Assembly: GCA_047973385.1 (NCBI GenBank)
Contig: JBKEBX010000021.1
Location: forward strand, 3,158 to 67,157
Length of the DNA stretch: 64,000 nucleotides
From: Lachnospirales bacterium
GTDB lineage: Bacteria > Bacillota > Clostridia > Lachnospirales > CAMZNU01
Reading direction: 5' to 3'
Part shown: in pieces, positions 4,652 to 47,765 of the stretch
How the letters are laid out: each line of letters starts with the position of its first letter
Position numbering within the stretch: the first letter of the stretch is position 1
Notes under the pieces: generated by a model
Told to the model about the DNA's origin: nothing
Seen by the model: only the letters and a program-made list of their open reading frames with translations
Databases searched by the model: none
Made by a program: the position numbers and the translations under genes

Positions 4652-4916
4652 TTTAGTATATTATATCATAAAGTAATTTCTATAAGAAATTACAATATTC
4701 TTAAGTCGTAGCCTTGTTTACGAGGCTAGGGCTTTAGTATATTATATCATAAAGTAATTTCCACAGGAAATTACAATGAACTTAACGAAAAGATTTATAT
4801 TAAAATCTTCGAGTTTTAGTTTATTATACCATAAAGTAATTTACACAGGAAACTACAATATGCTTAAGTCGTAGCTGTATTTATGTAGCTACACATTTAG
4901 TTTATTATACCATAAG
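4652..4916. repeat. Modular 81-82 bp repeat array, locus 1 (3 full 53 bp repeats + 1 partial; 28/29/28 bp hairpin spacers)
   Basis: Repeats at 4652-4704, 4733-4785, 4815-4867 and partial 4896-4916. Spacers at 4705-4732, 4786-4814, 4868-4895. Confidence 0.9.
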
Positions 4917-4967
4917 TATTTGGTGTAATTCAAGAGCAAATTGAAGTTTATTACTTTTTTCTTACAG

Positions 4968-5870
4968 TTACATCTTTTTACTATCGTATCCAAAACTTCT
5001 AAGCAAAAATTCGTTATCTCTCCAATCTTTTTTAACCTTAACCCAAGTTTTAAGATTAACCGACGAACCAAGTAATCTTTCAATATCTTCTCTCGAACGT
5101 CTGCCAATTTCTTTTAACTTTGTTCCGGATTTACCTATAATTATTCCCTTATGGTTTTCTCTTTCACAATAAATTGTAGCTTCTATATCTACTAAATCCC
5201 TATTGTCTCTTTTTTTCATAGACATAACTTCAACGGCAATTCCGTGGGGAACTTCTGCATTTAAAAGTCTAAGAGCCTTTTCTCTTACTATTTCAGCAAC
5301 AATTTGTTTTTCTGGCTGGTCTGTAATAGTATCTTCTGGAAAATACATAGGCCCAACAGGTAAATTATTTTTAATTGACGCTGTTAAAACTTCTGTATTC
5401 GTTCCATTTTTTGCAGAAATAGGTATAATTTCAGCAAAATCATATAACTTACTATATGCATCTATAACTTCTAAAACTTTTTCCTTTGGAAACTCATCAA
5501 TTTTGTTAATTATAAGGAAAACCTTACTTTTAACGTTTTTGATTTTAGAAATTATATTTAAATCATTATCATTTACTTTTTCGTATGGCTCAACTAAATA
5601 TAAAACTAAATCAACTTCATTTAATGTAGTTTCTGATGATTTCATCATATAACTACCAAGTTTTGTATTCGGTGAGTGCATACCTGGTGTATCTATAAAA
5701 ACGGCTTGAAAGTCATCTCTTGTAAGCACTGTTGTTATTTTATTTCGTGTTGTTTGAGGTTTGTTACTAATAATTGCAATTTTTTCGCCTATTAGATGAT
5801 TCATAAGAGTTGATTTACCTACATTTGGTCTACCTACAATTGAAACAAAACCTGATTTAAATTCGCTCAT
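4968..5870 (-). CDS. era: GTPase Era
   Basis: GRPNVGKST, DTPG, NKID and KH-domain GIIIGKSG motifs. Confidence 0.98.
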   Translation of the reverse strand: MSEFKSGFVSIVGRPNVGKSTLMNHLIGEKIAIISNKPQTTRNKITTVLTRDDFQAVFIDTPGMHSPNTKLGSYMMKSSETTLNEVDLVLYLVEPYEKVNDNDLNIISKIKNVKSKVFLIINKIDEFPKEKVLEVIDAYSKLYDFAEIIPISAKNGTNTEVLTASIKNNLPVGPMYFPEDTITDQPEKQIVAEIVREKALRLLNAEVPHGIAVEVMSMKKRDNRDLVDIEATIYCERENHKGIIIGKSGTKLKEIGRRSREDIERLLGSSVNLKTWVKVKKDWRDNEFLLRSFGYDSKKM

Positions 5871-5886
5871 TCTTTTCTCCTTATAT

Positions 5887-6279
5887 TTAAAAACTGTCTA
5901 CTTTAAAGCCAATAGGCAAAATTTCTTTAACCTTATAAACTTTGATTTCTCCTTTATTATTGCCAAGTAAAATCTCACATTCTTCATCAAAAAACTCAAA
6001 TATAACTTGTCTACAAATTCCGCATGGTGATGTAAAATCACCAGAGCTTGACATAACTGCTATTTTTGTAAAATTCTTATATCCTTCAGATATAGCCTTA
6101 AAAATAGCCGTACGTTCAGCACAGTTTGTTGCACCAAGACTTGAGTTTTCAATGTTACAACCTGTATAAACCTTACCTTCAGCTGTTAAAACTGCAGCAC
6201 CAACATTGAAGTGTGAAAAAGGTACATATGCATATTCTTTAGCCTTATCAGCCATTTCAATAAGTTTTTTATTATCCAT
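5887..6279 (-). CDS. cdd: Cytidine deaminase (homotetrameric type)
   Basis: GCNIEN, CAERTA and PCGICRQ zinc motifs; located next to era. Confidence 0.96.
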   Translation of the reverse strand: MDNKKLIEMADKAKEYAYVPFSHFNVGAAVLTAEGKVYTGCNIENSSLGATNCAERTAIFKAISEGYKNFTKIAVMSSSGDFTSPCGICRQVIFEFFDEECEILLGNNKGEIKVYKVKEILPIGFKVDSF

Positions 6280-6300
6280 AACTATTTCCCCTCTCTTTAA

Positions 6301-6364
6301 TCAGTCAAATGATATTTGGCTTAAAGTTGGGGCTCAAAACCCACTTTCGCTAAAATCCGACTGA
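6301..6364. repeat. Nested palindrome between ybeY and cdd
   Basis: Outer TCAGTC..GACTGA; inner AAAGTTGGG-GCTCAAAA-CCCACTTT, similar to the 222-246 hairpin. Confidence 0.45.
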
Positions 6365-6368
6365 TAAA

Positions 6369-6839
6369 TTATCTTCTTATATCTAAAGATTCTAAAATTT
6401 TCTTTTGTTTTCGTAGCATAACTTCTTCATCATTTTCATTCATATGGTCATAGCCTAAAAGATGCAGCATAGAATGTGCCGTTAAAAAAGCAATTTCACG
6501 TTTAACACTATGTCCGTACTCTTTAGCTTGTTTAAAAGCCTTATCAAGAGATATTACAATATCTCCAAGTGCTATAATCTCATCACTATCAATCTCAAGA
6601 GGCAACTCGCTATATAAAGGAAAAGATAGTACATCTGTAACACTGTCCTTTTGTCTATACTTTTTATTAAGTTCTCTTATCTCTTCGTTATCTACAACTG
6701 AAACAGATACCTCTACATTTGAAGTAAATTTTTCAAAAATCACTGTACCAAAAACTACATCTTTAATTAAATCCTCAATATTAAATCCAAGTTCATTTAT
6801 TCTTTTATCTTCCGTATCAAAGTTAAATAAAACTTCCAT
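6369..6839 (-). CDS. ybeY: rRNA maturation endoribonuclease YbeY
   Basis: TDVLSFP, LGDIVIS and HSMLHLLGYDH (H3xH5xH). Confidence 0.97.
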   Translation of the reverse strand: MEVLFNFDTEDKRINELGFNIEDLIKDVVFGTVIFEKFTSNVEVSVSVVDNEEIRELNKKYRQKDSVTDVLSFPLYSELPLEIDSDEIIALGDIVISLDKAFKQAKEYGHSVKREIAFLTAHSMLHLLGYDHMNENDEEVMLRKQKKILESLDIRR

Positions 6840-6841
6840 AA

Positions 6842-9055
6842 CTACTCCTTTTCGTCAACATGGGATTTTTCTTCATCATCTACTTCTGTTACTTCTTCAA
6901 CATCTTCTTCTTTTTCCTTACTATCATAGGAAGTTGTTGTATCAAGTTTATCCTTTATAGTTGCATCCTCAACCTTTGGAGTTTCTTTTTTCTCTGGGTA
7001 AACTACACGCTCATGATACATACCTTGGAAAACTCCAAAAAAAGTTTCTTTCACTACTTCAACTTCTTTATAGGTAAGTTCACACTCAGAAAGTTGACCA
7101 TCACTTATTTTATCGTTAATAAGTTTGCTTATATATGCCTTTAACTCATCATCAGAAGCTAAAGTTTTTATCATGCTTCTTACAGCAGCCTCAACAGTAT
7201 CTGCAAGCATTATGATACCAGCTTCCTTTGTTTGGGGACGATTTGAAGTATATCTGAAATCTTCTTCCTTTGCATCGGGATTATTTTCAAGTGCTTTATA
7301 ATAGAAAAACTTAACTAAAGTGTTACCATGATGTTGGAAAGCTATTTCCATAACTTTTTGTGGCAACTTATGTTTTTTAGCAAGTTCTATACCATCTGTA
7401 ACATGTGCCTTAATTATTTTTGTACTTTCTTCAGGCGATAAACTTGTATGCATACTTACACCGTTTTGGTTTTCTCCAAAATAACTTGAATTAGATAACT
7501 TACCTATATCATGATAATAACATGCAGCTCGTATTAAATTGAAGTTTGCACCGATTTTTTCAGCTGCAGCTTCTGAAAGGTTTGCAACTATTAAAGAGTG
7601 ATGATACGTACCAGGAGCTTCAATTGTCAATCTTTTAAGTAATGGTTTTGATGGCTTTGTAAGCTCAGTTAAAGTTGTAGGCGTAAGTATACCAAACATT
7701 ACTTCCCAAAGCGGCATAGTTCCAATCGCAAGACATACAACTAAGGCTGTTGCAAAAAGTGGTACATATATTAATTCTCTGTTTTCAACTGAAAAAATAT
7801 TTGTTGCCACTTGTGTACTCGTAAAGAAATAGTTAAGCACATAAGTTACAGCAACGTTAAATAAACATAGCATAATAGTTGTAGATACAAGCTTTGATCT
7901 TTCTGTAATTTGATGTGATACACTAACCATAAAAAATCCAGCAAGTAACACATACATAACATCGACCACTGTAAATCCAGCTAAACTTATACCCTGTATA
8001 CAAAGCATAATAGTCATAAGAAATGCCACTTTAAAATCAATTAAAACTGCCACCCATAAAAGTATTAACAACGAGAAATTTGCTGCATAATTACTACCTG
8101 TTATAACAGAAAGTGCCAAAAGTCCAATTAAATATATTACAAAAAAAGCAAGACATAAACTATGACTCTCAAGAGATTTTATCTCAAATTTAACTATGAA
8201 AGTCAAGAAAAGCAACAACATAATCATACATTGTGCAAGATAACCTAATACTTCAACAATGTCCACTTTTGAGGCATCTGCTTCAATAAATCCAAGTTGA
8301 TTTAACAGACTATATGATTCAAGAGTTATAATCTCTCCTTCGTCAACAATAGTCTGTCCCTCTTTTATCATAACATCTTCAACATTTTCAATTGCCAAAT
8401 CTTTATTAGCTTGGGTTATTTCCTCATCAATAAAGTTGTTAGGCTCTAAAAAGCTAAGAGCAAGTTTATAAGCAATATCAACATATTTTGAATCAATTTT
8501 ATTTGCTAAGCTATCTTTAACTAAAACAGAAGTTTTAGGCATTTCATCAGTTTTTATACCTGCTTGTAAAGTTTCATCTATAACAGATTCAATAGAGCTT
8601 TTAAAAACTGAATAATCTTCTGTACTCATAGTTATAAGGGTTTCAGCTTCTGTTGCTGTATAGTCCTCTAAAGCAGTTTCAAAATTATAAACTCTTGGCT
8701 CTGAGCCCTCTGGCAAAGAGGAATTGTACGCTATCATAGCATTATATGAAACTCTTTTAGACTCGATTAATAGAAAGAAATTATCCAGTTCTTTCTCCAT
8801 TTCTGTTGTTTTTTCTTCATCTATTACATAAACAGCCGAAGTGTTATTTTCAGCCTCAAGTTTCAACTCATCTGTTGCATATTCATTTACTGTTGTAATA
8901 GGACTTTTTATTTTTGTAGGTGCAACGTCACCTATTTCTAAATTAAAACTTTCAGATACATTACTTTTCAGAACTAGCAATAAAAAAGTTATAACAAGTG
9001 CAATCATAATTAACGTAGCTTTAAAAAAATCTATTTTACTATTTTTACTACTCAT
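6842..9055 (-). CDS. pgpH: 7TM-HD phosphohydrolase (PgpH/YqfF-like c-di-AMP phosphodiesterase)
   Basis: Extracellular domain plus multiple TM helices plus HD domain (APGTYHHS, YYHDIGK, HHG, LADTVEAA); phoH-ybeY synteny. Confidence 0.88.
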   Translation of the reverse strand: MSSKNSKIDFFKATLIMIALVITFLLLVLKSNVSESFNLEIGDVAPTKIKSPITTVNEYATDELKLEAENNTSAVYVIDEEKTTEMEKELDNFFLLIESKRVSYNAMIAYNSSLPEGSEPRVYNFETALEDYTATEAETLITMSTEDYSVFKSSIESVIDETLQAGIKTDEMPKTSVLVKDSLANKIDSKYVDIAYKLALSFLEPNNFIDEEITQANKDLAIENVEDVMIKEGQTIVDEGEIITLESYSLLNQLGFIEADASKVDIVEVLGYLAQCMIMLLLFLTFIVKFEIKSLESHSLCLAFFVIYLIGLLALSVITGSNYAANFSLLILLWVAVLIDFKVAFLMTIMLCIQGISLAGFTVVDVMYVLLAGFFMVSVSHQITERSKLVSTTIMLCLFNVAVTYVLNYFFTSTQVATNIFSVENRELIYVPLFATALVVCLAIGTMPLWEVMFGILTPTTLTELTKPSKPLLKRLTIEAPGTYHHSLIVANLSEAAAEKIGANFNLIRAACYYHDIGKLSNSSYFGENQNGVSMHTSLSPEESTKIIKAHVTDGIELAKKHKLPQKVMEIAFQHHGNTLVKFFYYKALENNPDAKEEDFRYTSNRPQTKEAGIIMLADTVEAAVRSMIKTLASDDELKAYISKLINDKISDGQLSECELTYKEVEVVKETFFGVFQGMYHERVVYPEKKETPKVEDATIKDKLDTTTSYDSKEKEEDVEEVTEVDDEEKSHVDEKE

Positions 9056-9106
9056 ATCTCCCTCGATTTCTTCTAAAATACATTATAGTTATCAGCGTTA
9101 TAGTCA

Positions 9107-10195
9107 TTATCTTTTATCCCTATTTCTAATAGGTTTACCATTAGCATCTCTATGAACATATATCTTTTTCAAATTAGTATTTGCAAAACGTGAGGAACGT
9201 TCTTCTTTAAATTCTTCTCGTTTTCGTCTTTTATCTTGTTCTTTATCAGCCTTTTCATAAGCTTTTATAATTGATTGAACAAGAGGGTGTCGCACAACAT
9301 CTTTATTTGTAAATTTACATATAGAAATATCTTCTACATTTTCTAAAATCGAAACTGCAACATCAAGTCCTGATTTTTTGCCATAGGGTAAATCAATTTG
9401 AGTAACATCTCCTGTAACACAAACTTTTGAACCAAAACCAATTCTTGTTAAAAACATTTTCATTTGTTCAGGTGTAGTATTTTGTGCTTCATCAAGTACA
9501 ATAAAGGCATTATCAAGAGTTCTACCACGCATATAAGCAAGTGGTGCAACTTCGATTAAACCTTTCTCCATATTTTTTGTAAAATTTTCAGCACCCATAA
9601 TTTCATATAATGCATCGTATAAAGGTCTAAGATATGGGTCAACTTTTTGTTGTAAATCACCAGGTAAAAAACCTAATCTTTCACCTGCTTCAATAGCAGG
9701 TCGAGTTAAAATTATACGGTTAACCTGATTGTTTTTAAAAGCTTTTATAGCCATAGCCATAGCTAAATAAGTTTTACCCGTACCAGCAGGTCCAACACCA
9801 AAAACAACTGTATTTTTCTTTATAGCCTCAACATATCTTTTTTGTCCAACGGTTTTAGGACGTATAGGCTTGTTAGATATTGTCAAAGCTACAACTTCGC
9901 TATCCATTTTATCTACTTCTTTTTCATCAATCTCTTCAATTATACTAATAAGATATTTTACATAGGTTACAGAAACTTCTTCATTTCGCTCTGCTCTTTT
10001 AATCATTTTATCTATTATTTTATATGCTTTTCTTAATTGTTCATCATCACCATTTATAGAAATATTTTCCCCACGAGCTATAATTTGTACTTTCAAATCT
10101 TCTTCAATCGCTTTTAGGTTTTCATCAAAGCTTCCAACTATTTTAGGTAACAATCTTGCATCTATTGTAATTGCATTATTTTCTTCCATTTTCAC
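9107..10195 (-). CDS. phoH: PhoH-like ATPase (YbeZ type)
   Basis: GPAGTGKT, LTRPAIEAGERLGFLPG, YMRGRTL, DEAQN motifs. Confidence 0.96.
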   Translation of the reverse strand: MKMEENNAITIDARLLPKIVGSFDENLKAIEEDLKVQIIARGENISINGDDEQLRKAYKIIDKMIKRAERNEEVSVTYVKYLISIIEEIDEKEVDKMDSEVVALTISNKPIRPKTVGQKRYVEAIKKNTVVFGVGPAGTGKTYLAMAMAIKAFKNNQVNRIILTRPAIEAGERLGFLPGDLQQKVDPYLRPLYDALYEIMGAENFTKNMEKGLIEVAPLAYMRGRTLDNAFIVLDEAQNTTPEQMKMFLTRIGFGSKVCVTGDVTQIDLPYGKKSGLDVAVSILENVEDISICKFTNKDVVRHPLVQSIIKAYEKADKEQDKRRKREEFKEERSSRFANTNLKKIYVHRDANGKPIRNRDKR

Positions 10196-10221
10196 CTCAA
10201 GTAAATCTTTTGTATTTATAT

Positions 10222-10313
10222 TGCTTCACTCACAAAATATAGAAAATCCATTTTCATAACAAAACAACAGCTACTTTTGCAATGTGCCATTCTTTTAATT
10301 TTGCAACGTTGCC
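10222..10313 (+). mobile_element. MITE copy A (internally deleted, 92 bp)
   Basis: Both ends match the 173 bp family; flanked by an ATAT direct repeat (10218-10221 and 10314-10317). Confidence 0.75.
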
Positions 10314-10318
10314 ATATT

Positions 10319-11572
10319 TTAACTTTCACTTTCCTGTTTTTCTTCTTCGTTTATTTTTTCATTTACTTCTTTTTCAATAACTTCATCATAATCTATTACC
10401 TTTTCTTCAGCAATATTCTCTACAACATATATTATACTATAAACTTCTATGTTTTGGCTAGTTTTTTTTATATTTATTGTTTTTTCTACAACATCAGCAT
10501 CAATATCGAAGTTACTATAAATTAAATTGTTCAGCATTTCATTGCTTTCAGCCTTGATTTCTTCTTCATTTTTCTCCTTAGTTGTGATTTTTAACTCCTT
10601 ATAACTACTTTTCGTTATAACAATTGGAAAAGTATATTTTTCCGACAATTTTAATTGAACACGTTTAGTAGTTTTATTAAAATTTTCATAGTTTATATTT
10701 CTTTTTAATATATCATAGTTTTTACCAAAAAAATAGATGCTATAATCATTTTTTAAATTTCCTGTTTCTTCTTCAATATAAACCTTATCATCAATTGTAT
10801 AATAAAAGTCATAAACAGTTTTAGCACGAACTTCACTTACAGCTTTAACATAGCTATAATTTTTCCCATTTTCATCTTCGTTTAATTCTATTTTCCCTGT
10901 AACTAAAATATCCCCCTTACTTACAACATCACCAATTGTAACTACTTGTTTACCCTTACTTGTTTTTGTATAATATATAACACCATCTTTTTTTGCCACA
11001 ATATTTGAAGGTATATCTTCTGTAAGATTTATTTCCTTTTCTATTGCCTCAGACACATCGATTTTTAAAGTTGTTCCTTCTGTATATATACTAACCCACG
11101 TAATTTTGGGAAAATTCTTTTGTACGATTTTCTCTAATTCTTCCATATTAAACTCATTATTATATTTGCCAATGTATATATCATTTTCCTTTAAAACTTC
11201 AATTACTTCATAGTTATTTATAGTAGTGTTTCCCTCAATTTCAATATTCCATATAAATCTTGATAAAAAATTAATTGTAAATAAAAAAAATAGGCAACCA
11301 AAAAGTAAAATTTTTCGTTTCCTATACCTATGCATTAAAAAAGGTATACCTGTTTTACCTTTTATCCTTACTTTACAACCTGTTTTCCTCCCAAAGCCTC
11401 TCATTAAGTAAAAACCTTTTATACTTGTTGAACAAATCAGCTTTGATCCATAATTGTTCACATTCCAAAGGGGTATTTCTTTATTATTACATAAATTTAA
11501 AAATCTATTAATCGCATACCCCAAAACTTCTACTTCTACATACCCTTTTACAAAATTAAAAATAAAACGCAC
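10319..11572 (-). CDS. yqfD: Sporulation protein YqfD
   Basis: GYVEVEV..RFLNLC, KTGIPF, SRFIWNIEIEGN, NIVAKKDGVI, GDILVTG; adjacent to yqfC and phoH. Confidence 0.92.
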   Translation of the reverse strand: MRFIFNFVKGYVEVEVLGYAINRFLNLCNNKEIPLWNVNNYGSKLICSTSIKGFYLMRGFGRKTGCKVRIKGKTGIPFLMHRYRKRKILLFGCLFFLFTINFLSRFIWNIEIEGNTTINNYEVIEVLKENDIYIGKYNNEFNMEELEKIVQKNFPKITWVSIYTEGTTLKIDVSEAIEKEINLTEDIPSNIVAKKDGVIYYTKTSKGKQVVTIGDVVSKGDILVTGKIELNEDENGKNYSYVKAVSEVRAKTVYDFYYTIDDKVYIEEETGNLKNDYSIYFFGKNYDILKRNINYENFNKTTKRVQLKLSEKYTFPIVITKSSYKELKITTKEKNEEEIKAESNEMLNNLIYSNFDIDADVVEKTINIKKTSQNIEVYSIIYVVENIAEEKVIDYDEVIEKEVNEKINEEEKQESES

Positions 11573-11580
11573 AATCTCAC

Positions 11581-14064: not shown

Positions 14065-14096
14065 AAACTCACCTTTATTATTTTTATAATATATTT

Positions 14097-14199
14097 GGCT
14101 TCATTGCAAAATATAGAAAAATCCATTTTCATAGCAAAACAACGGCTTTGTGACTTTTCCTTTTGCAATGTGCCATAATTTTAATTTTACAACGTTTCC
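14097..14199 (+). mobile_element. MITE copy B (internally deleted, 103 bp)
   Basis: GGCTTCATTGCAAAAT ... TTTTACAACGTTTCC; ATTT direct repeat (14093-14096 and 14200-14203). Confidence 0.8.
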
Positions 14200-14299
14200 A
14201 TTTAAGCATACTTACAATTATAACATTTATTCTTGCAAGAAATCAATAAAAATGATAAAATATAACTTGTATGATTTTGAAATTTTATGAGGTGAAAAT

Positions 14300-15966: not shown

Positions 15967-17244
15967 GTGATTTTTATTAGTAATTATAATTGTAACGATA
16001 GAAAACATGAAGATAAAAAATGCAAAGACGAAAAATGCAAAGATGAAAAAGGATATTGTATAATTGATAAGCCTAAATGTGACGATGACATATATGTACT
16101 TTTAAAAGGCAGTAAAGGTGAAAAAGGCGAACGAGGAGATAAAGGTAAAAAAGGATGTAAGGGCGACACTGGTTGCAAAGGTGACCAAGGTCCTCAAGGT
16201 ATTCCCGGTCCTCAAGGGGTTCCTGGTCCTCAAGGTGTTCAAGGTCTTCAAGGACCTATGGGTGTTCAAGGTGAACAAGGCGAGCGTGGCGACCAAGGTA
16301 TACAAGGTGAAAAGGGCGATACAGGTTGTACTGGTGAGCAAGGTCCTCAAGGTATTCCTGGTCCTCAAGGTGTTCCTGGTCCTCAAGGTGTTCAAGGTCT
16401 TCAAGGACCTATGGGTGTTCAAGGTGAACAAGGCGAGCGTGGCGACCAAGGTATACAAGGTGAAAAGGGCGATACAGGTTGTACTGGTGAGCAAGGTCCT
16501 CAAGGTATTCCTGGTCCTCAAGGGGTTCCTGGCCCTCAAGGTGTTCAAGGCGTTCAAGGCTTAACAGGGCCTAAAGGCGATACAGGTTGTGGAATACCTG
16601 GACCTCAAGGAGAACAAGGAGTTCAAGGTCCTGCTGGTCCATGTTGTGACCCTACTTGTAAAGAAACTATAACTACTCTATTGGAAGATTTAAGCGAAGA
16701 ACAAAAAACAATACTTGGAGATGAATATTTAGAAAGTGAGTTTTTAGAGGAAGCCCTAGTTTCTGTTTTAACTAAAGCTACTTTAAATTTAGAGGGTATG
16801 GGCTTTATACAAGATAGTATAATCGATAATATTATAGATGATTGTTTAGTTAAGCTTTATAGTAGTATTGGTGATGGCACTTTAGTTAATCTTATGGAAA
16901 TTTGCGATGTGCTTGGTATTTGTGTATCTGTTGATACAACTATTGGTCAATGGCTTTTAGACTATGAACTTCCCAGTTATGAAGATAGTAGTAGTTGCAA
17001 ATGCACTCTAGCTATATATGATTTAATAAACAATATTATAACTTTTTGCCCTGAAAAAACTTTAAGTTTTAACATTAACTTAAGTTTAGGCCAAGAAAAC
17101 TTTATTGATGTTAATGTTCTGGAAGTTAGTAAAGGGCTCGTTAAATTTACGCATTTTATAGAAAATACTGAAGTAGTTTGTGTGATTTCTCTTTGTGCAA
17201 TAAGTAGAGTATACTACTTACTTGATAGTTGTACTAATTCTTAA
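15967..17244 (+). CDS. Cys-rich collagen-like protein (probable spore/exosporium surface protein)
   Basis: Long Gly-X-Y run, Lys/Asp/Cys-rich N-terminus, Cys-rich C-terminal domain, no signal peptide, sigma-K-like promoter. Confidence 0.8.
   Translation: MIFISNYNCNDRKHEDKKCKDEKCKDEKGYCIIDKPKCDDDIYVLLKGSKGEKGERGDKGKKGCKGDTGCKGDQGPQGIPGPQGVPGPQGVQGLQGPMGVQGEQGERGDQGIQGEKGDTGCTGEQGPQGIPGPQGVPGPQGVQGLQGPMGVQGEQGERGDQGIQGEKGDTGCTGEQGPQGIPGPQGVPGPQGVQGVQGLTGPKGDTGCGIPGPQGEQGVQGPAGPCCDPTCKETITTLLEDLSEEQKTILGDEYLESEFLEEALVSVLTKATLNLEGMGFIQDSIIDNIIDDCLVKLYSSIGDGTLVNLMEICDVLGICVSVDTTIGQWLLDYELPSYEDSSSCKCTLAIYDLINNIITFCPEKTLSFNINLSLGQENFIDVNVLEVSKGLVKFTHFIENTEVVCVISLCAISRVYYLLDSCTNS
16186..16560 (+). 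repeat. 153 bp near-identical intragenic tandem repeat (about 2.5 copies)
   Basis: The CAAGGTCCTCAAGGTATT start recurs at 16186, 16339 and 16492 (17 Gly-X-Y triplets per unit). Confidence 0.9.
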
Positions 17245-17245: not shown

Positions 17246-17418
17246 TGCTTCATTGCAAAATATAGAAAAATCCATTTTCATAACAAAACAACGGCTTTGT
17301 GGCTTTTGACAAAACCCAAGGAAAGGTTGTATCATCGCCATTTCCTGCATTTGTCAAAAGCATGAAAATTTGGTTTTTATTTTGCAATGTGCCATTATTT
17401 AAACTTTGCAACGTTTCT
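17246..17418 (+). mobile_element. MITE copy C (full length, 173 bp)
   Basis: Terminal inverted repeats; internal 12 bp inverted repeat GCTTTTGACAAA/TTTGTCAAAAGC; TAAT direct repeat (17242-17245 and 17419-17422). Confidence 0.85.
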
Positions 17419-17436
17419 TAATATATTTTTCCTAAT

Positions 17437-37129: not shown

Positions 37130-37345
37130 TCGCTGTTTTATAAAAAAACAAGCATAGCAAGGGGCGACTTATCGCGGTACCACCCTTGTTATGCTTGTTA
37201 AATGCACATCTCTAAGAACTTTGTAACGTAAGTTATACGCCTATTTTTCAATAGGGATTACCTTAAAGTAGCTTTCAACAAGAACAAATGAAAATTTTCA
37301 CCAAGCATTTTCTCTCTAAAATTTATTTCTCGTTTACTTATCTTT
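37130..37345 (-). promoter_or_regulatory. T-box riboswitch (Ala specifier)
   Basis: AAGGGTGGTACCGCG T-box (37173-37188); AG/GNUG stem I elements; specifier GCU at 37270-37272; terminator with U-run before alaS. Confidence 0.93.
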
Positions 37346-37377
37346 AAAATCATAATTTTTTATTAAAAACAAAACAA

Positions 37378-37704
37378 GAAGCACATCTATAAGCCGTGTC
37401 CTGTCGTGGGCTATCATCTGTCTGGGACAATAATCACCTATTGCCTCTAGCGGTATTTTCGTAAACTAAAGCGAGTAACTTATATAAGTTTACACCTTGC
37501 ATCGAATGGGGTTTACAGAGCCAAAGTTATTACTAACTAAGCTGGTGAGCTCTTACCTCACCTTTCCACCTTTTCCCTTACGGGTAGTCTATTTCTGTTG
37601 CACTATCCTTAGTGTCGCCACCACCAGTCGTTAACTGGCATTCTACTCTATGATGCACGGACTTTCCTCATTTGCAAAGCAAACGCGATAACCTAACATA
37701 CTTC
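37378..37704 (-). ncRNA. rnpB: RNase P RNA (type A)
   Basis: GAGGAAAGTCC, AGTGCAACAGAAA, GGTAAGAGCTCACC, GTAAACCCC, AGACAGATGA, CGGCTTATA; the ends pair as P1. Confidence 0.96.
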
Positions 37705-37706: not shown

Positions 37707-37807
37707 GATTATATGTTGTAACATAAGGTAATTTCCATCGGAAATTACAATAACTTTAATGTGTAGCCGTATTTATGTAGCTACGCATTTAGGTCATTAT
37801 AACATAA
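37707..37807. repeat. Modular repeat, locus 3 (1 full 53 bp repeat + 28 bp spacer + partial repeat)
   Basis: Repeat 37707-37759, spacer 37760-37787, partial repeat 37788-37807; same geometry as loci 1 and 2. Confidence 0.85.
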
Positions 37808-37824
37808 TTTTTAATATTATTCAA
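37796..37824 (-). promoter_or_regulatory. Sigma-A promoter, probably driving rnpB through the repeat unit
   Basis: TTGAAT-N17-TATAAT with TG extended -10. Confidence 0.55.
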
Positions 37825-41237: not shown

Positions 41238-41301
41238 TTTTTAAAAAATGAAATTATGCCATGATTTATAACGCAAACTCAAGACATTTCCAATATTAAA
41301 T

Positions 41302-42954
41302 TTATTCGTAAATACTTCCACCAACAAACTCACGAATTATGGAAGTTGATGGGACCATTTCAGCGGGTATAGATAACACACTTTTTAAAAACTTAATTAA
41401 ACGTCTACACTCTGAGTACTCCACATCATCACTTTCGACTTTGAAAAGTATTGGTAATACATAGTTTTTAAGTATTGCAAGTTCATATACTAAAGCAGAG
41501 TTAAACACTGCGTCTGCTTCCTCTTGATAAGGGAAAATATTATCCGACTCGCCTTTTAAAACATCTTGCCACATTGCAATAGTTGTAAGCGCATGGAAAC
41601 CTCTAAACTTGTGGTCACGAACAATTCTTCTTATAAGTCTAGTATCTCTTGTTGCTATTCTATTTATATCATCAACATTAATTTGAGTTAATGCAGCAAT
41701 AAAAATCTTAAATTTAAGTTCCTTTGGAATAAGTTTTGTAAGTTCATCATTCAAACCATGAATACCTTCTATAATAATTATACTGTTTTCCTTTAGCTTA
41801 ACTTTATTGCCTTTCCACTCTTTCTCACCTGTAACAAAATTAAAGTGAGGTATCTCAACTTCTTTGCCCTCTAACAACTCTGATAAATCACGATTTATCA
41901 TATCAATTTCTAAAGTTTCTATAACTTCAAAATTTCTTTTCCCATTTTCATCTACCGGTATGTCATCACGATTTTTATAATAATCATCAAGACCTATAAC
42001 AACAGGCATAAGCCCATTTACTTGTAAATGCACACAAAGTCTTTTTGAAAAAGTAGTTTTTCCACTTGAGCTAGGACCTGCAATCAAAACAAGTTTTTTA
42101 TGGTCTTTACATATACTCTCTGCAAGTTTAGTAAGCTTTTTCTCGTGTAAAGTTTCATTAATTCTTATTAACTCATCTATTCTATCATTTTCAATATGAT
42201 TGTTTATACCTGCCACATTTGACGCTTTTAGAACTTTCGCCCATTCTGCTGACTCCTCAAAAACTGCTGATACTTTATCATACAACTCAAGTCCACGTTC
42301 TTCATCAAGATTATCTCTTGTAGGGAACACTATAACAAATCCGTCTTTGTAAGCTGCAACTTCAAAGTTTTTAAGCCCACTACAACTTGATGCTAAAACA
42401 TCATAGAAAAAGTTATAGACTCCTTTTAGAGAATATAAAACTATGGAGCTTTCAACCTCATATTTTATTAAATCACGTCTTACAGGGTTATTGAATTTCT
42501 CCATTAAATCATAGGCTGTATCAACTCGTATATGTTCACGATAAATAGGCACATCTTCTTCAACCATTTTATCCATATGTTCATTGATTTTTACAACGTC
42601 TGCCTCTGTTACATCTATGCCTTCAACATGACAATAGAAACTTTTTGAAATAGAATGTTTTACAACCATTCTAGCTTTTTCTCCAAAAATTTCTTTTATA
42701 GCAACATATGCCATAAAGGAAATCGAACGTTGGAATGCTAAATATCCGTCATAATCTGTAACTTCAACAAAACTAACTGTTGAGCCGTCTAAAACTTCTC
42801 TATTTAAGTCAACTAAAACATTGTTTGTTTTAGCTACAATAGGTTCACTATCAAAATTAAGCTTATTATCTTTCTTTAATAAACTTATCAAATCTAAAAA
42901 TGTACTTCCTTTTGGAAGTTCTATTTTATTATTATTATAATTAGTAGTAATCAT
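41302..42954 (-). CDS. Nucleoside (uridine) kinase with ThrRS-like N-terminal domains
   Basis: N-terminal TGS/ThrRS-like region; C-terminal IAGPSSSGKTT, LDDYY, IIEGIHGLN, RLIRRIVRD. Confidence 0.88.
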   Translation of the reverse strand: MITTNYNNNKIELPKGSTFLDLISLLKKDNKLNFDSEPIVAKTNNVLVDLNREVLDGSTVSFVEVTDYDGYLAFQRSISFMAYVAIKEIFGEKARMVVKHSISKSFYCHVEGIDVTEADVVKINEHMDKMVEEDVPIYREHIRVDTAYDLMEKFNNPVRRDLIKYEVESSIVLYSLKGVYNFFYDVLASSCSGLKNFEVAAYKDGFVIVFPTRDNLDEERGLELYDKVSAVFEESAEWAKVLKASNVAGINNHIENDRIDELIRINETLHEKKLTKLAESICKDHKKLVLIAGPSSSGKTTFSKRLCVHLQVNGLMPVVIGLDDYYKNRDDIPVDENGKRNFEVIETLEIDMINRDLSELLEGKEVEIPHFNFVTGEKEWKGNKVKLKENSIIIIEGIHGLNDELTKLIPKELKFKIFIAALTQINVDDINRIATRDTRLIRRIVRDHKFRGFHALTTIAMWQDVLKGESDNIFPYQEEADAVFNSALVYELAILKNYVLPILFKVESDDVEYSECRRLIKFLKSVLSIPAEMVPSTSIIREFVGGSIYE

Positions 42955-42972
42955 AGTCCACCGCCTTTTTAG

Positions 42973-43770
42973 TTAATTATATTGCCTAATTATAGTTTCA
43001 TCAATATCACAAATTTTAGAATCAATTTTAAATCTCTCTTTTATCATCTTACTTAAAACATCTAAAACAATTACTTCTGAATTATAATGTCCAAGGTCAA
43101 TTATAGCAACATCACGATTAAAGCCCTCTTGTGCTCTATGATAAGTCAAATCGCCTGTAAGACATACATCACAGCCCATATCAATAGCTTTATTTAATAT
43201 TTTCGAGTCAATTGCACCTGTACAAAGCCCTACTTTTTTTATAGATTTATTTAAACCTCGTATGTCTGTGCAGTACTTAATATTTTCAAAACCACATTCA
43301 CTTATATACTTTAAAAACGCTTCTAAAGTCATTTCCTCTTTCAACTCTCCAACTCTACCAAGACCAGCCTTTGTAACTTCATCAATAACGGAAATTGTCA
43401 CTTTGCCTTGTAGCTTTAGAATGTCAAAAAGAGTGTCATTTGTTCCAATAATTGCACTATCTAAATTAGTATGTGCTGTATAAACGCTTATACCGTTTTC
43501 TATACATCTAATTATCTTTTTACTAACTGTTGTATCAGTGTTTACGGCAGTAATACCACCGAAAATAATCGGATGATGTGTTATTATAACGTTTGCCCCT
43601 TCTAAAATTGCAGCATCAATTGCCGAAGTTGTTAAGTCTAAGGATAGTAAAACCCCTTTTACTTTTTTATGTCTATCACCAATAAGTAGCCCTACATTAT
43701 CCCAGCTTTCTTTGTAATGCTCAGGTGCTATTTCATTTAGGAAACCAAAAAGGTCATTAAGTATAATCAT
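42973..43770 (-). CDS. Nif3-like dinuclear metal centre protein (YqfO/YbgI family)
   Basis: SWDNVGLLIGD, ITHHP, HTNLD, TGD..YH, DLGHYNSE. Confidence 0.93.
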   Translation of the reverse strand: MIILNDLFGFLNEIAPEHYKESWDNVGLLIGDRHKKVKGVLLSLDLTTSAIDAAILEGANVIITHHPIIFGGITAVNTDTTVSKKIIRCIENGISVYTAHTNLDSAIIGTNDTLFDILKLQGKVTISVIDEVTKAGLGRVGELKEEMTLEAFLKYISECGFENIKYCTDIRGLNKSIKKVGLCTGAIDSKILNKAIDMGCDVCLTGDLTYHRAQEGFNRDVAIIDLGHYNSEVIVLDVLSKMIKERFKIDSKICDIDETIIRQYN

Positions 43771-44425
43771 GTAATACCCCCTTATAAATTTCATTTTCTT
43801 TTAATAAAGTATCTATCTTACTATTGCCTTTATTTATTTTTTCTATTACTCTATTATTATTGTCAATTTGTCTTTTAATATATTTATAATATTCATCATC
43901 TTTTAGAGGATTTTTACCTATTAGTATTTCTATATCCGTGTATTTAGGCTTAACCATAGACTTAAGACAATCAAAAATAATATAGTATTTTCCATTATCT
44001 TCTATATAATGTTCTGTTACTTCAATATTTAAATTTTCTAAATATTTTTTAAATGCTGGTATGTCCGATTGAGGTTGTAAAATAAGTTGATTTAAAGTAC
44101 TTACTATTGCATGACTATCCTCTAAAATTTTTATCATAAGAAGTCCACCTATACCACCTATAATAGCCGTATCAACTTCATTTTCTTCAATACATTTTAA
44201 ACCGTCACCAAGTCTACATTCAACTTTATCATCAATTTCATATATTTTTATATTTTCCATACATTTACTAAGTGGTTCTTTATTTATATCACAAGCAATG
44301 ACTTTTTTAGCATTTTTATTTTCACAAGCTAAAATCGAAACAAATCCATGGTCACAAGCCACATCACAAACTCTATCATACTTCACTAAATCAACTAATT
44401 TATTTAGTCTTTTAGAAAAAAACAT
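43757..44425 (-). CDS. trmK: tRNA (adenine22-N1)-methyltransferase
   Basis: SKRL, DVACDHGF, RLGDGL, IGGIGG.LM..IL, LILQP; typical position before Nif3. Confidence 0.92.
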   Translation of the reverse strand: MFFSKRLNKLVDLVKYDRVCDVACDHGFVSILACENKNAKKVIACDINKEPLSKCMENIKIYEIDDKVECRLGDGLKCIEENEVDTAIIGGIGGLLMIKILEDSHAIVSTLNQLILQPQSDIPAFKKYLENLNIEVTEHYIEDNGKYYIIFDCLKSMVKPKYTDIEILIGKNPLKDDEYYKYIKRQIDNNNRVIEKINKGNSKIDTLLKENEIYKGVLHDYT

Positions 44426-44451
44426 ATTAACTCCTTTATTTTTCAATGTTT

Positions 44452-45828
44452 TTAATAACACTGAAAAGTTGGTTTCTTATCAAACTTGATTACCTGTTCT
44501 AAAATATAAGCAAAACGTATTAAATCCACATCTTTTTTATGTTTTCCAAAAATCTGTATACCAAAAGGAACTTTATTGTCACAAACTCCAACAGGCAAAG
44601 CAATTGACGGGCTTTTTGTGAAGTTTCCAAGGGTAACGATGTTCTGCTCATTTTTAACACTTGTAAGCGGCGTTAAAATAAAATCACAATTACTCATTAC
44701 TTGATTATATTCATAAATTAGCTTTTGAATCATATCTTCAGTTATTTTTATAACATCTTGCCCTTCATTTTTATAGTATTCACCCATAAAAATTCGTTGA
44801 CGTACTCTCTTGTCAAACAACAAACTTTTTTCTGCAATTTTGTTTGCACTGTGATATTTATTTAGTGTATATAAAAACTGATTATGCCCCTCTACTGCTG
44901 TTGTAACTTTATACAATGCCGAAGTTTTGTTAATCATAGGAATAGATGCCGTTTCAACTTCAAACAAATCACTTTTTTCAAGTTCTTTTATTAAATCAAA
45001 ATAGCCTACCATTTCATCAGTTTTACGCTCTATTTCATTAATTTCTTTTAAAACACGAACTTTAATTTTACTTTCATACTTTTGTCTCGCTTTTAAATAT
45101 GCATCTTTATAATCTACAAATTCAAAATTTTCATCATTTTTATCAAATACAGTCATATACTCCATAGAAATAGCCATATCAAGTACAGACCCTGCAATAC
45201 TACCTATTGTATCAAGGCTATTTGCATAGCCATAGCAATTCTTTTTAGATATACAGTTATATGTTGGCTTTATACCAACAACTCCTGTTTTACCTGCTGG
45301 CTCACGTACTGAACCACCTGTATCCGTACCAATTGAGTACGCTCCATACCCTGCTGAAACAAAAATAGCACTGCCCCCACTTGAGCCACTAGCATCATAA
45401 TTCAAGTTAAAAGGATTTTTTGATAAAAACTTAAAGGATTTTGTCATATCCCCAACACCAAACTCGTCAAGATTTAATTTTGCAAGCATGACTCCATCAT
45501 TTTTCAATAAGTTGTCAACACAAAAAGCTGTTTCATCAGGCTTGTACAATTCATAAAACCTAGAACCTGCCGTTGTAACTATCCCCTTTGTTTCTATACT
45601 ATCTTTTACACCAAAGGGAATACCTGCAATCAGGCTTATTTCTTTGCCACTTTGTATTTTTCTATCAACTTCATCTGCTTTATTTAATGCAAAATCAAAT
45701 GTACGATTTATTATTGCATTTGTTAAACTATCATATCTTTCAATTTTACTTATACAACTTTCTGTTATTTCTCTTGAAGTAATTTCTTTATTTATTAACA
45801 TATTATGTAAATCTAAAATACTTAACAT
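44452..45828 (-). CDS. Amidase-signature protein, divergent GatA-like
   Basis: GIPFGVKD, NLDEF, GSSGGS, GTDTGGSVREPA..TGVVGIKPTY; C-terminal half diverged from GatA. Confidence 0.8.
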   Translation of the reverse strand: MLSILDLHNMLINKEITSREITESCISKIERYDSLTNAIINRTFDFALNKADEVDRKIQSGKEISLIAGIPFGVKDSIETKGIVTTAGSRFYELYKPDETAFCVDNLLKNDGVMLAKLNLDEFGVGDMTKSFKFLSKNPFNLNYDASGSSGGSAIFVSAGYGAYSIGTDTGGSVREPAGKTGVVGIKPTYNCISKKNCYGYANSLDTIGSIAGSVLDMAISMEYMTVFDKNDENFEFVDYKDAYLKARQKYESKIKVRVLKEINEIERKTDEMVGYFDLIKELEKSDLFEVETASIPMINKTSALYKVTTAVEGHNQFLYTLNKYHSANKIAEKSLLFDKRVRQRIFMGEYYKNEGQDVIKITEDMIQKLIYEYNQVMSNCDFILTPLTSVKNEQNIVTLGNFTKSPSIALPVGVCDNKVPFGIQIFGKHKKDVDLIRFAYILEQVIKFDKKPTFQCY

Positions 45829-45843
45829 TCCAATAACCACCCT

Positions 45844-45993
45844 TTACTTGTCTATCAATAGACTTTTCTCTACAATTTTAAGCTCATATATAGAACGTTC
45901 AAGCACAAACTCTATCTCATCATCTAAAAAAATAATACTACCATTTTTACCACTATCTTCAATAGATAATTTCAAGTAATCATAACCATTCAT
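45844..45993 (-). CDS. Small 49 aa ORF upstream of the amidase
   Basis: ATG after GGTG; open for 50 codons and fills the gap between tsaB-rimI and the amidase; MNGYDYLKLSIEDSGKNGSIIFLDDEIEFVLERSIYELKIVEKSLLIDK. Confidence 0.4.
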   Translation of the reverse strand: MNGYDYLKLSIEDSGKNGSIIFLDDEIEFVLERSIYELKIVEKSLLIDK

Positions 45994-46007
45994 AAAACAC
46001 CTTTTTG

Positions 46008-47102
46008 CTATATATAAAGCCACATTATATAAGCATCTTCTCCATTTTCATAATAATTTTTGCGTTCTCCCTCAAGAACAAACCCAAGTGACTCATAGGT
46101 TTTTATAGCACCCTCATTATTTTTATTAACCTCAAGAGTTAATCCTATACATATTTGTTCCTTGTAATAGTCAACTAAATATGTAATTAACTTTTTACCG
46201 ATACCTTGACGTCGATATTTATCACAAATTGCAACATTCGTTATATGCCCTTCATTTATAATATATCTTGAACTTATATATCCAACAACTTTTTCATCAA
46301 TTAAAGCTATAAAAAAATTTGCCATAGAGTTTTTCGCCTCATCTTCAAACATTCCTCTTGTCCAAGGTTGTGCAAATGACTTTTTCTCTATTTCCAAAAT
46401 TTCGTCTAAATATTTTATATCAAACTCAACTATCTTTACATTTTTAAGGTTATACACTCTCTCTGCCTCTGTCTGCTTTAAATAAAATAACTCAACTTCA
46501 TCATATCTTACAGGCTGACTTTTTTCTATAAGCTCACTCATAGAAGAAACCCTTTGAAAATAATTATTGTTTGAAGCTACTTTATAGCCATCACTTTCAA
46601 TTTTTTCCTTATGCAAAAGTACACCATCACCAGTAAAGATAACCTCTTTATCATAGCTCTTGCATAAAGCTAAAACTTCATCAATATGTTTTAAATCATA
46701 GTTTCTAAGTTTTTCACCTTTTTCGTAAATACTAAAATACACTTCACTACGTCTTGCATCTATAATCGGTATAACTATACCTACAAAATCCCTTGCATTT
46801 TCCTTTAATAAATCTAAAGTATTTATAGGTAATACATCTTTTTGTATGGCACTTGCAAGTGCCATAGCAGTTGCTACACCTACCCGTTGCCCTGTAAATG
46901 AACCTGGGCCATTTGTTACAGCTATGTTATCAATATCCTTAAGCTCCATATCAATAATCTTAAACATATCTTCAATAAGCACCATTAAGGTTTTACTATG
47001 GTTTCTTATACAATTTATAGTAAACTCACTTAATATCTTTTTATCTTCAATAATCCCTACACTTGCAACTAAAGAAGTTGTATCTATACATAATGTTTTC
47101 AT
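46008..47102 (-). CDS. tsaB: TsaB-RimI fusion (t6A biosynthesis protein TsaB + GNAT acetyltransferase)
   Basis: IDTTS, GPGSFTGQR.G and IDARRSEVY (TsaB), then in frame GHITNVAI..KYRRQGIG, TLEV...N.GA...Y...GF..G.RKNYY (RimI). Confidence 0.92.
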   Translation of the reverse strand: MKTLCIDTTSLVASVGIIEDKKILSEFTINCIRNHSKTLMVLIEDMFKIIDMELKDIDNIAVTNGPGSFTGQRVGVATAMALASAIQKDVLPINTLDLLKENARDFVGIVIPIIDARRSEVYFSIYEKGEKLRNYDLKHIDEVLALCKSYDKEVIFTGDGVLLHKEKIESDGYKVASNNNYFQRVSSMSELIEKSQPVRYDEVELFYLKQTEAERVYNLKNVKIVEFDIKYLDEILEIEKKSFAQPWTRGMFEDEAKNSMANFFIALIDEKVVGYISSRYIINEGHITNVAICDKYRRQGIGKKLITYLVDYYKEQICIGLTLEVNKNNEGAIKTYESLGFVLEGERKNYYENGEDAYIMWLYI

Positions 47103-47104
47103 AC

Positions 47105-47536
47105 TTACCTCGTAACCTTTATATATCTGTAATCTTCACCCTTTGTTAAATCCTTAAATATCTCAATACTAATTATATTATCAGGTAAATAATCACTGAC
47201 ACGTTTTGGCCATTCAATTAAACAAACACCCTCACCAAAAATATAATCATCAAAACCTATATTTAGAACTTCATCTTGTTCTTCTATCCTATACATATCA
47301 AAATGATAAAACAACAGTCTTCCCTCATATTCATTAACTATTGTAAAAGTAGGGCTAGTTATTTCATCATCTATATCCAATCCCTTTGCAAAGCCTTTTG
47401 CAAAAACCGTTTTACCAACACCAAGGTCACCCTCTAAACAGTATACCTCACAAGCCTTTGCATTCTTTCCATATTCATATCCTATTTTATATGTTTCTTC
47501 CATAGAAAAAGATTCTTTTTGCATTTTTTTCTCCAC
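47105..47536 (-). CDS. tsaE: t6A biosynthesis ATPase TsaE
   Basis: GDLGVGKT, TSPTFTIVNEY, YHFDMYR, LIEWP. Confidence 0.96.
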   Translation of the reverse strand: MEKKMQKESFSMEETYKIGYEYGKNAKACEVYCLEGDLGVGKTVFAKGFAKGLDIDDEITSPTFTIVNEYEGRLLFYHFDMYRIEEQDEVLNIGFDDYIFGEGVCLIEWPKRVSDYLPDNIISIEIFKDLTKGEDYRYIKVTR

Positions 47537-47581
47537 TGTTTCTTATATTCTCCATAAATCGCTTTTACATTTATAGCTTTA

Positions 47582-47765
47582 TTTAGTTTATTAAAACATA
47601 GAGTAATTTTCACAGAAAATTACAATAATCTTAATGTATAGCTGTATTTATGTAGCTATGCATTTAGTTTATTATACCATAGAGTAATTTTCACAGAAAA
47701 TTACAATACTCTTAAGTCGTAGCCCTGTTTTCGTGGCTAGGGCTTTATGTTCATTATACCATAAA
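47582..47765. repeat. Modular repeat array, locus 2 (2 full 53 bp repeats + partial; two 28 bp spacers)
   Basis: Repeats 47582-47634 and 47663-47715, partial 47744-47765; spacers 47635-47662 and 47716-47743. Confidence 0.9.

Follow-up and report, generated by a model that had tools for sequence, protein, structure and literature searches.

An 81-nucleotide repeat family in a gut Lachnospirales genome that probably inserts at the upstream edge of extended −10 boxes

RESULTS

Three repeat loci of common geometry lie beside gene starts

The window analyzed here is a 64,000-nt stretch of DNA (contig C33, positions 3158-67157) from the genome of an uncultured gut Lachnospirales bacterium (G000), a 2.48-Mb draft of 82 contigs with 30.9% G+C and 96.5% completeness; its protein homologs are consistent with that placement. 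It contains three loci of a repeat with units of about 81 nt, which an earlier note on this DNA had described as sharing one geometry and one orientation. We confirmed that description together with its coordinates, and the four variants of the repeat's palindrome quoted there are exact. Our analysis suggests that the repeat is probably a species-restricted family of 81-nt noncoding, nonautonomous elements that insert at the upstream edge of extended −10 boxes.

Each unit carries two hairpins, hp1 and hp2, and is counted here from AAAG through ...CAT on the strand that folds (the + strand); "gene-side" and "distal" refer to the ends of an array that are near to and far from the neighboring gene, respectively. 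The features of the three loci are the following.

4652-4669, + strand: gene-side tail of locus 1, TTTAGTATATTATATCAT; its minus-strand reading is ATGATATAAT
4670-4750, 4751-4832 and 4833-4913, + strand: units of locus 1 (81, 82 and 81 nt), with three different hp2 types
4904-4933, − strand: predicted distal hybrid promoter of locus 1, with TTGAAT at 4933-4928 (unique flank), an 18-nt spacer and TATAAT at 4909-4904
37374-37704, − strand: class A RNase P RNA, served by locus 2 (Rfam match, 262 bits)
37707-37724, − strand: degenerate gene-side box of locus 2, TATGTTA-CAACATA-TAAT
37725-37805, + strand: single unit of locus 2 (81 nt)
37796-37824, − strand: predicted distal hybrid promoter of locus 2, with TTGAAT (unique flank), a 17-nt spacer and the unit's own box TGTTATAAT; 10/12
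47582-47599, + strand: gene-side tail of locus 3, TTTAGTTTATTAAAACAT; its minus-strand reading is the degenerate ATGTTTTAAT
47600-47680 and 47681-47762, + strand: units of locus 3, with hp2 of type B and type A, respectively
47797-47824, − strand: intrinsic terminator of the upstream gene 47832-48881(−)

At locus 1, the units read AAAG-hp1-AATAnnCTTAA-hp2-TTTAGTnTATTATAnCAT on the folding strand, and the gene-side tail lies 62 nt 5′ of a redoxin-family gene, 3872-4591(−). The distal TATAAT of this locus is the last unit's own box, preceded by TG, and at 10/12 it belongs to the best promoter-like site of the region. At locus 2, the gene-side TATAAT (37713-37708) ends 4 nt ahead of position 37704, where the RNase P RNA match begins. 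At locus 3, the gene-side tail sits upstream of tsaE, 47105-47536(−); since the array lies past the terminator at 47797-47824, it falls within the tsaE promoter region.

The window has 5 occurrences of the palindrome pattern GTAATTT-N7-AAATTAC, compared with a chance expectation of 0.01. A scan of the window against Rfam placed no family over the repeats, its sole matches being the RNase P RNA, a T-box leader and a signal recognition particle (SRP) RNA. As stated in the earlier note, no cognate protein is seen within the window.

Two covarying hairpins fold on one strand

On the + strand, a unit starts with AAAG, followed by hp1 (a 9-bp stem, GTAATTTCC/GGAAATTAC, closed by a loop of 2-5 nt) and then by AATAATCTTAA. 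The second hairpin, hp2, has a 12-bp stem, a 4-nt loop and a variable sequence of at least five types, of which GTCGTAGCTGTC is one; the tail of the unit after hp2 is TTTAGTTTATTATAnCAT. Since AATAATCTTAA pairs with TTTAGTTTATT, the whole helix is ~21 bp long; its base is conserved, and hp2 is its variable tip. The 28-nt "spacer" described previously is thus indeed a hairpin, and its types recur between loci as had been observed, but it is the tip of a longer hairpin. The ends of the unit, AAAGTAATTT... and ...TTATTATAnCAT, are not inverted repeats.

In an alignment of 52 distinct units, covariation is strong in both hairpins. Specifically, 90.8% of cells pair, compared with 82.6 ± 0.5% after shuffling and 37-44% when the partners are slid; 13 pairs are changed on both sides, and doubly changed cells number 127, compared with 44 ± 6 in shuffles. 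For example, columns 9-15 hold CG 28 times, UA 15 times, UG 4 times and AU twice, and columns 46-52 hold CG 16 times, AU 15 times and GC 15 times. Covariation, for which a check had been proposed, is therefore present with no matching Rfam family, and the alignment supports the view of a structure-conserving modular element. The modules themselves appear to be exchanged, in that hybrid hp2 types and module shuffling are seen. Types A-C of hp2 have a nearly invariant GTAGC (alignment columns 37-41), and types D and E are without GTAG.

The two strands differ in how well they fold. Wobble cells are asymmetric, with 128 G·T compared with 28 A·C overall and 75 compared with 6 in the hp2 stem alone; counted by independent events, the asymmetry is more modest, at 9 compared with 3 pairs having at least 3 such sequences. 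In addition, the + strand is the more stable one in 67 of the 72 distinct units found in the genome, with a mean RNA folding energy of −23.4 compared with −17.7 kcal/mol. Together, the wobble asymmetry and the stability indicate that the folded strand, be it DNA or RNA, is the + strand, which is the template strand of the neighboring gene. Mutation bias as the source of the G·T asymmetry was rejected by reasoning, since deamination of the leading or nontemplate strand would put G·T on the promoter strand.

A folded + strand could also mean that the unit is a small RNA (sRNA) gene. Such a gene would give either a + strand RNA of ~75 nt, consisting of hp1, the single-stranded AAUAAUCUUAA, hp2 and a UUUAGUUUAUU terminator, or a promoter-strand transcript ending at hp1-UUUAU, and the arrays would then be sets of sRNA genes, antisense to the 5′ ends of neighboring genes or leading them. 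This proposal is favored by the G·U wobbles on the + strand, by terminator-like calls on both strands (hp1 followed by UUUAU on the minus strand, hp2 followed by UUUAGUUUAUU on the + strand) and by weak TATTAT promoter-like sites on the + strand. However, the −35 of the latter would fall in the variable hp2, where it is not conserved, and there is no TG extension. No Rfam family matches, the unrelated hp2 types fit a structural role rather than a base-pairing sRNA, and the insertion junctions and flanking −35 hexamers described below would be left unexplained. We regard an sRNA gene as an improbable identity for the unit.

The family is dispersed over one genome

The genome-wide profile search that had been suggested for the repeat (iterated nhmmer) returned 78 full units, 72 of them distinct, together with partial units, at 51 hidden Markov model loci; merging arrays that are split across contig ends leaves ~46 real loci. 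The arrays consist of 1-6 units with a period of 79-82 bp, consistent with the tandem expansion proposed earlier. Mean unit identity is 92% within arrays and 78% between loci. Nevertheless, 16 pairs of units from different loci differ by no more than 2 nt, and 1 pair is identical. Because such near-identical units occur at different loci, the family has recently spread or been homogenized.

These counts also bear on the resemblance to a CRISPR array, which lies in a 53/28 geometry with repeat and spacer alternating regularly. A CRISPR-like array is contradicted by the occurrence of ~46 loci of only 1-6 units, located in promoters, and by the absence of any phage match, and it is refuted by hairpin "spacers" of ~5 types that recur between many loci. 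We agree with the earlier note that this explanation deserves practically no credence.

Outside its own genome, the family is nearly absent from the collections that we searched. No match was found by pattern in 40 relatives, by exact pattern in 185,579 species genomes and JGI metagenomes, or in phage and plasmid collections, and a covariance model run on 401 genomes of the order found only the own genome plus one 44.9-bit copy in a sister species. In 45 kb of contigs from the nearest relatives (Era protein 79-81% identical), there is no unit and the neighbors differ. An exact Era look-up and a homolog search show the species on record once, and searches for sequencing runs or reads found only relatives with ~90% identical RNase P RNA. 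The region upstream of RNase P RNA in the sister species is without a unit, but it is too diverged to align.

Two observations concern the assembly. Arrays stand at the contig ends of C27/C38, C33 start/C80, C64 and C53, which shows that the repeat breaks the assembly. In addition, C46:310-388 and C74:18657-18734 hold near-identical units with the same flank on two contigs, the C46 copy lying 19 nt upstream of tmRNA; this pair could be strain heterogeneity of the metagenome-assembled genome (MAG) or a duplicated locus.

Units lie inside predicted promoters

All units are intergenic, and the minus-strand TGnTATAAT that had been reported is found on nearly every unit. At 39 of the 46 loci with determinable context, this box reads into a gene start, typically 20-100 nt away. 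The orientation toward the gene start is kept at 5 lagging-strand loci too; orientation follows the gene, not replication. Most units carry the full extended −10 sequence, and the distal copies have a flanking −35: a −35-like hexamer (at least 4/6) lies 16-18 bp upstream of the distal box, in unique flank, at 20 of 44 loci, compared, as controls, with 16% of random positions and 29% of the other TGnTATAAT sites. For the stable RNAs, these distal −35 hexamers and spacings are TTGACA-17 (5S/tRNA cluster), TTGAAT-17 (RNase P RNA) and TTGATT-17 (tmRNA). The internal boxes of arrays have the TG, with a poor −35 within hp1.

The two ends of an array differ in the quality of their boxes. Of 40 loci, 33 have a perfect TGnTATAAT as the distal box and only 19 as the gene-side box, the imperfect gene-side boxes looking like ordinary −10 variants (CATAAT, TAAAAT, TGTAAT and TAGATT). 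Moreover, the gene-side −10 ends 4-5 nt ahead of the starts of the RNase P RNA and tmRNA matches, which is a normal distance. On its sequence, the distal box reads as coming with the element and the gene-side box as native. The earlier note had placed the units just downstream of σA promoters; the association with promoters stands, but the units fall within the predicted promoters, with the native −35/spacer on one side and the native −10 on the other.

The genes served include those for a redoxin, tsaE, mnmA, lysA, pheS, rsmG, soj, galE, an SbcD-like phosphoesterase and transaldolase, and the stable RNAs served are RNase P RNA, tmRNA and the 5S/tRNA cluster. Since these genes are functionally unrelated, they do not form a regulon. 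This bears on the view, offered previously as operator plus promoter cassettes, that the repeat is a host regulatory cassette in which hp1 (GTAATTTC-N3-5-GAAATTAC) is the operator of a dimeric transcription factor over the internal −35, in a regulon with tandem promoters. Each unit does have a −10 box, hp1 is the most conserved hairpin, and its palindrome reaches from about −42 to about −19 of the next box; the half-sites also resemble, at a different spacing, the CodY box, AATTTTCWGAAAATT. However, the operator role of hp1 finds no support. The downstream genes have nothing in common, the compensating stem changes and the loop of 2-5 nt fit structure rather than base-specific recognition, and the sister species is without such a site at its RNase P locus. 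We consider a regulatory cassette very improbable.

Filled and empty sites delimit the insertion

On the folding strand, the units are found in one orientation, directly 3′ of ATTATAnCAT, which on the other strand is the upstream edge of a σA extended −10 box (ATGnTATAAT). A perfect ATTATAnCAT also stands at the end of the unit. At ~40 loci, the promoter junctions read ...ATTATAnCAT^AAAG, where ^ marks the point of insertion.

Four units have an atypical left flank, which is part of a second and far more abundant repeat family with >200 BLAST hits genome-wide. This family provides internal controls, since 114 of its copies are empty sites that read intact through ...ATGGCACAT^TGCAAAAG, and 4 copies are filled sites that hold exactly one unit at ^. 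The empty copies include the following in the window.

10223-10315, 14096-14215, 17247-17420 and 50749-50927, − strand: uninterrupted copies of the second family, with intact GGCACAT^TGCAAAAG

In the cleanest filled site, at C37:19812, CAT is followed by an 81-nt insert running from CAAGTAATTTCC to TTTAGTACATTATATCAT, which starts CAAG-hp1-hp2, and then by TGC. The nested junctions read GGCACAT^CAAG...ATTATATCAT^TGC. Two further copies of the second family contain internally deleted remnants of a unit, of which the one at C7:50045 keeps both junctions and the one at C24:97048 only the left. The right-hand box of the nested sites, ATTATATCAT, does not duplicate the target on the left, AATGGCACAT; the two have only CAT in common. 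The comparison of filled and empty sites therefore defines the unit as a discrete insertion 3′ of a box-like ...CAT, with its own box at its 3′ end. As far as these junctions indicate, there is no long target duplication. A long duplication of the box was considered and rejected on the comparison of distal with gene-side boxes and of the nested filled with empty sites.

The second family itself consists of part 1, ACGTTGCAAAATTGAAATAATGGCACATTGCAAAAG, and part 2, GTTGTTTTGCTATGAAAATGGATTTTTCTATATTTTGCAATGAAGC, with inverted ends TTGCAAAAG and CTTTTGCAA. Its copies often lie just upstream of gene starts and have no Rfam match; the family may be a MITE (miniature inverted-repeat transposable element) or a leader element.

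A single copy lies in an IS1380-family gene of a sister species

The only unit outside the own genome is the 44.9-bit copy in genome G001 (MAG Lachnospirales VLC_046), at L050/L062:258-347, with an hp1 loop 10 nt longer. It lies within the 3′ end of a gene for an IS1380-family transposase, directly after the coding (V-Y-H) sequence GTATATCAT. Related IS1380 transposases end a few codons past the homologous tyrosine, and deleting the 90-nt match from the sister-species gene would give ...VYH-SSYLTI*, similar to those transposases. From its sequence context, the copy looks like an independent insertion at the same motif. We rejected IS1380 as the origin of the family, because six related IS1380 copies are without unit sequence and G000 is without an IS1380 transposase. 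In IS1380-family copies of other MAGs (L063-L068), we observed an outward-facing extended −10, T(A/G)TGGTAAAAT, ~70-80 nt inside the right inverted repeat CCAGAATTCTGCGT, which recalls the outward promoter of ISEcp1.

The same junctions allow two explanations other than target-adjacent insertion to be weighed. The first is movement by a DDE transposase, as a classical cut-or-copy MITE that makes a true target-site duplication, either of the whole 11- to 14-bp box or of the 3-bp CAT only. In its favor, direct copies of the box or of CAT bound every unit, base n of the flanking boxes matches above chance, and the sister-species copy sits inside an IS1380-family element. However, there are no terminal inverted repeats, the nested right-hand box and its target share only CAT, and the distal boxes are perfect where the gene-side boxes are not. 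The link to IS1380 is further countered by the related IS1380 copies lacking the unit and by a host genome lacking the transposase. We judge a DDE-type MITE to be unlikely.

The second is a dispersed minisatellite of the MIRU-VNTR kind, spread with no enzyme by template switching or gene conversion seeded on the −10 box and then expanded by slippage. The tandem arrays of variable length, uniform at several loci (C78, C44 and C64), would be expected of it; the hybrid hp2 types and shuffled modules indicate frequent conversion, base n matches across units, and no enzyme was found. On the other hand, the insertions at GGCACAT^TGCAAAAG and in the IS1380 gene share few bases with the box, and the units keep strictly to one orientation, with boundaries exact to 81 nt. 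Unlinked loci that have only 11 bp of common homology also contain near-identical units. A minisatellite, too, appears to us an unlikely account.

Proposed insertion into promoters and its consequences

In the reading that we prefer, in which an 81-nt element inserts at promoters, the element would land at the upstream edge of a native ATGn-hexamer. The unit's TGnTATAAT would then take the position of the native −10, 17 bp from the native −35, creating a hybrid promoter, and the native −10 would be displaced 81 bp downstream and stay beside the gene. The transcript of the hybrid promoter is predicted to start inside the unit, in AAACUAAAG, 6-8 nt past the distal TATAAT and within AAACTAAAG, and would pass through the weaker promoter-strand hp2 and hp1 before reaching the native leader; internal boxes may add extra starts. 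Given the terminator-like calls at hp1 and hp2, attenuation or short RNAs would be possible. Since expression would not be destroyed, such an insertion would explain the persistence of the units at promoters of stable RNAs and of housekeeping genes that have no relation to each other. The target would be rebuilt at the unit's end, so that repeated insertion could give mixed arrays, with slippage or unequal exchange giving uniform ones; the regenerated target would thus explain the tandem arrays.

Mobilization could occur in trans through a folded single strand, as suggested by the strand-specific hairpins, the fixed orientation, the target-adjacent motif and the lack of a long target duplication. 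Our leading guess, unproven and tentative, is that a Y1/HUH transposase of the IS200/IS605 type mobilizes the unit, which would make it PATE-like. The genome has two PF01797 (Y1 transposase) genes, both broken. One is a C-terminal fragment, and the other is the following.

C13:3393-3745, − strand: IS200-like Y1 gene (L043), with two frameshifts in homopolymer runs (CCC and A7)

The frameshifts could reflect a real pseudogene or assembly errors. The left end of this IS200-like element abuts AATTATATCAT^, directly upstream of a −10 box, a ribosome-binding site and an ATG at the contig end, and a solo left-end remnant of 55 nt (C25:27783-27836) abuts CAATATCAT^. Both left-end junctions thus indicate that the resident IS200-like element uses the same adjacent motif. 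The search for a RAYT/TnpA gene that had been recommended found no RAYT-like gene in the genome, and the ends of the two broken PF01797 genes are unlike the unit. The earlier suggestion of an HUH-mobilized module best fits the insertion logic; it is unproven and at odds with the lack of an intact Y1 or RAYT gene, with the unlike hairpins and with the lack of a replication-strand bias.

Several points weigh against our interpretation. The empty sites compared all lie in one genome, and the assembly is a draft in which many arrays stand at contig ends. The nested filled sites probably descend from one insertion event, and a 3-bp duplication of CAT is possible. The variable base n tends to match across a unit's two boxes (odds ratio 7; 13 of 18 perfect pairs), which is predicted by a duplication or homogenization model, not by an element-borne box, and which our reading leaves unexplained. 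No intact mobilizing enzyme was found in the genome, which at 96.5% completeness could have missed a copy, and the IS200-like ends score <17 bits against the unit model, with no likeness to hp1 or hp2. In IS608, one TnpA binds both ends; hp1 and hp2 are unlike each other, and hp2 comes in at least five unrelated types, so the unlike hairpins are hard to reconcile with one sequence-specific TnpA binding both ends. Finally, IS200/IS605 elements favor the lagging-strand template, whereas occupied promoters have no strand bias beyond the general one of promoters: G-rich:C-rich counts are 36:10 (occupied loci), 56:18 (free promoter-like boxes) and 1330:440 (all open reading frames), with Fisher p = 0.83.

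It is also possible, though we hold this only tentatively, that the family represents a class of selfish DNA with no earlier description. It would be a single-strand transposon of miniature size that homes to promoters, the complement of the σA extended −10 serving as its target-adjacent motif. Such an element would swap its own consensus −10 in register with the host −35 and add an 81-nt double-hairpin 5′ leader.

Other features of the window

A T-box leader, 37157-37359(−), starts 15 nt 3′ of the RNase P RNA gene on the same strand, and a large SRP RNA lies at 57659-57921(−). The region 16097-16591 is a periodic direct repeat with 153-nt copies, a sub-periodicity of 18 nt and 8 in register, which may be a coding-sequence repeat. 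The open reading frame 46008-47102(−), of 364 aa and 3′ of tsaE, presumably encodes, judging by eye, a TsaB-like N-terminal half fused to a RimI-type acetyltransferase C-terminal half.

DISCUSSION

Small interspersed repeats are common, REP, BOX, RUP, Correia and MIRU among them, but their choice of sites and means of movement are mostly unexplained. The family described here offers unusually clean sequence evidence on both points, in the form of a defined insertion point at the −10 edge, an element-borne replacement −10 and internal filled and empty controls. If our interpretation is correct, the family would be a natural mobile DNA that targets promoters without inactivating them, and a source of compact, portable promoter/leader cassettes for low-GC anaerobes. 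If the family is indeed the promoter-homing selfish class considered above, insertion would be near harmless or beneficial, through a stronger −10 and a 5′ stem-loop, and promoters would be a safe harbor, as terminators are for some group II introns. Expression could then be rewired across ~2% of the genes in a genome. In metagenome-assembled drafts, repeated "promoters" may be mobile elements, and they may break assemblies.

Among known systems, the closest in logic are PATEs, gene-less nonautonomous derivatives of IS200/IS605 that depend on a Y1 HUH TnpA and a "peel-and-paste" mechanism (PMC10055086). Like them, the unit is gene-less, shorter than 100-200 nt and equipped with near-end hairpins that fold on one strand. 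It also sits in one orientation directly 3′ of a short adjacent motif with no long target duplication, has a related motif at its own right end and shares the adjacent motif with an IS200-like element of the genome. In contrast to PATEs, its hairpins are unlike each other, with the right one varying freely, its ends are unlike the resident IS200 ends, no intact tnpA is present and there is no replication-strand bias. Moreover, its adjacent motif is a promoter element of ~10 nt, and its units form tandem arrays.

BOX elements of Streptococcus pneumoniae, with the layout boxA-boxB(n)-boxC (PMC3049150), are similarly small, modular, intergenic and species-restricted, with much secondary structure, a variable number of tandem modules and no known transposase. 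They are also co-transcribed with neighboring genes, as is predicted for the unit. However, BOX elements combine three distinct modules and have no fixed relation to a −10 box, whereas the unit is a single 81-nt repeat with a consensus extended −10 and a defined position inside promoters. REP sequences and BIMEs, associated with RAYT (TnpAREP) proteins (PMC8266576, PMC2817692), share with the unit structured palindromes with GTAG, a high copy number and a suspected HUH enzyme. REPs are mostly found downstream of genes, with alternating orientation inside BIMEs and a RAYT gene that they flank, whereas the unit's arrays run head to tail upstream of genes, with no RAYT. In addition, the GTAG of the unit is inside the hp2 stem rather than 5′ of the palindrome, and it is missing from two of the hp2 types.

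The promoter position of the units can be compared with that of other mobile DNA. Correia elements (CREE) of Neisseria and insertion sequences that create hybrid promoters (ISEcp1, from the IS1380 family, is one) resemble the unit in being mobile DNA that supplies promoter hexamers to neighboring genes. Such elements insert at TA or loose sites and have terminal inverted repeats and target duplications; none is known to target the −10 box itself with replacement in register. Likewise, our search of the literature turned up no repeat described as targeting the −10 box. In their dispersal, the units recall the mycobacterial MIRU-VNTR, which occupies ~40 intergenic loci as short tandem arrays of 50-100 bp units with variable copy number. 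MIRU-VNTR units lie between genes within operons and have short overlapping reading frames, with no promoter box and no covarying hairpins, whereas the unit has both a promoter box and covarying hairpins. Altogether, we count the family among the small nonautonomous interspersed repeats; insertion at the −10 box with its replacement in register is described for none of PATE, BOX, REP and MIRU.

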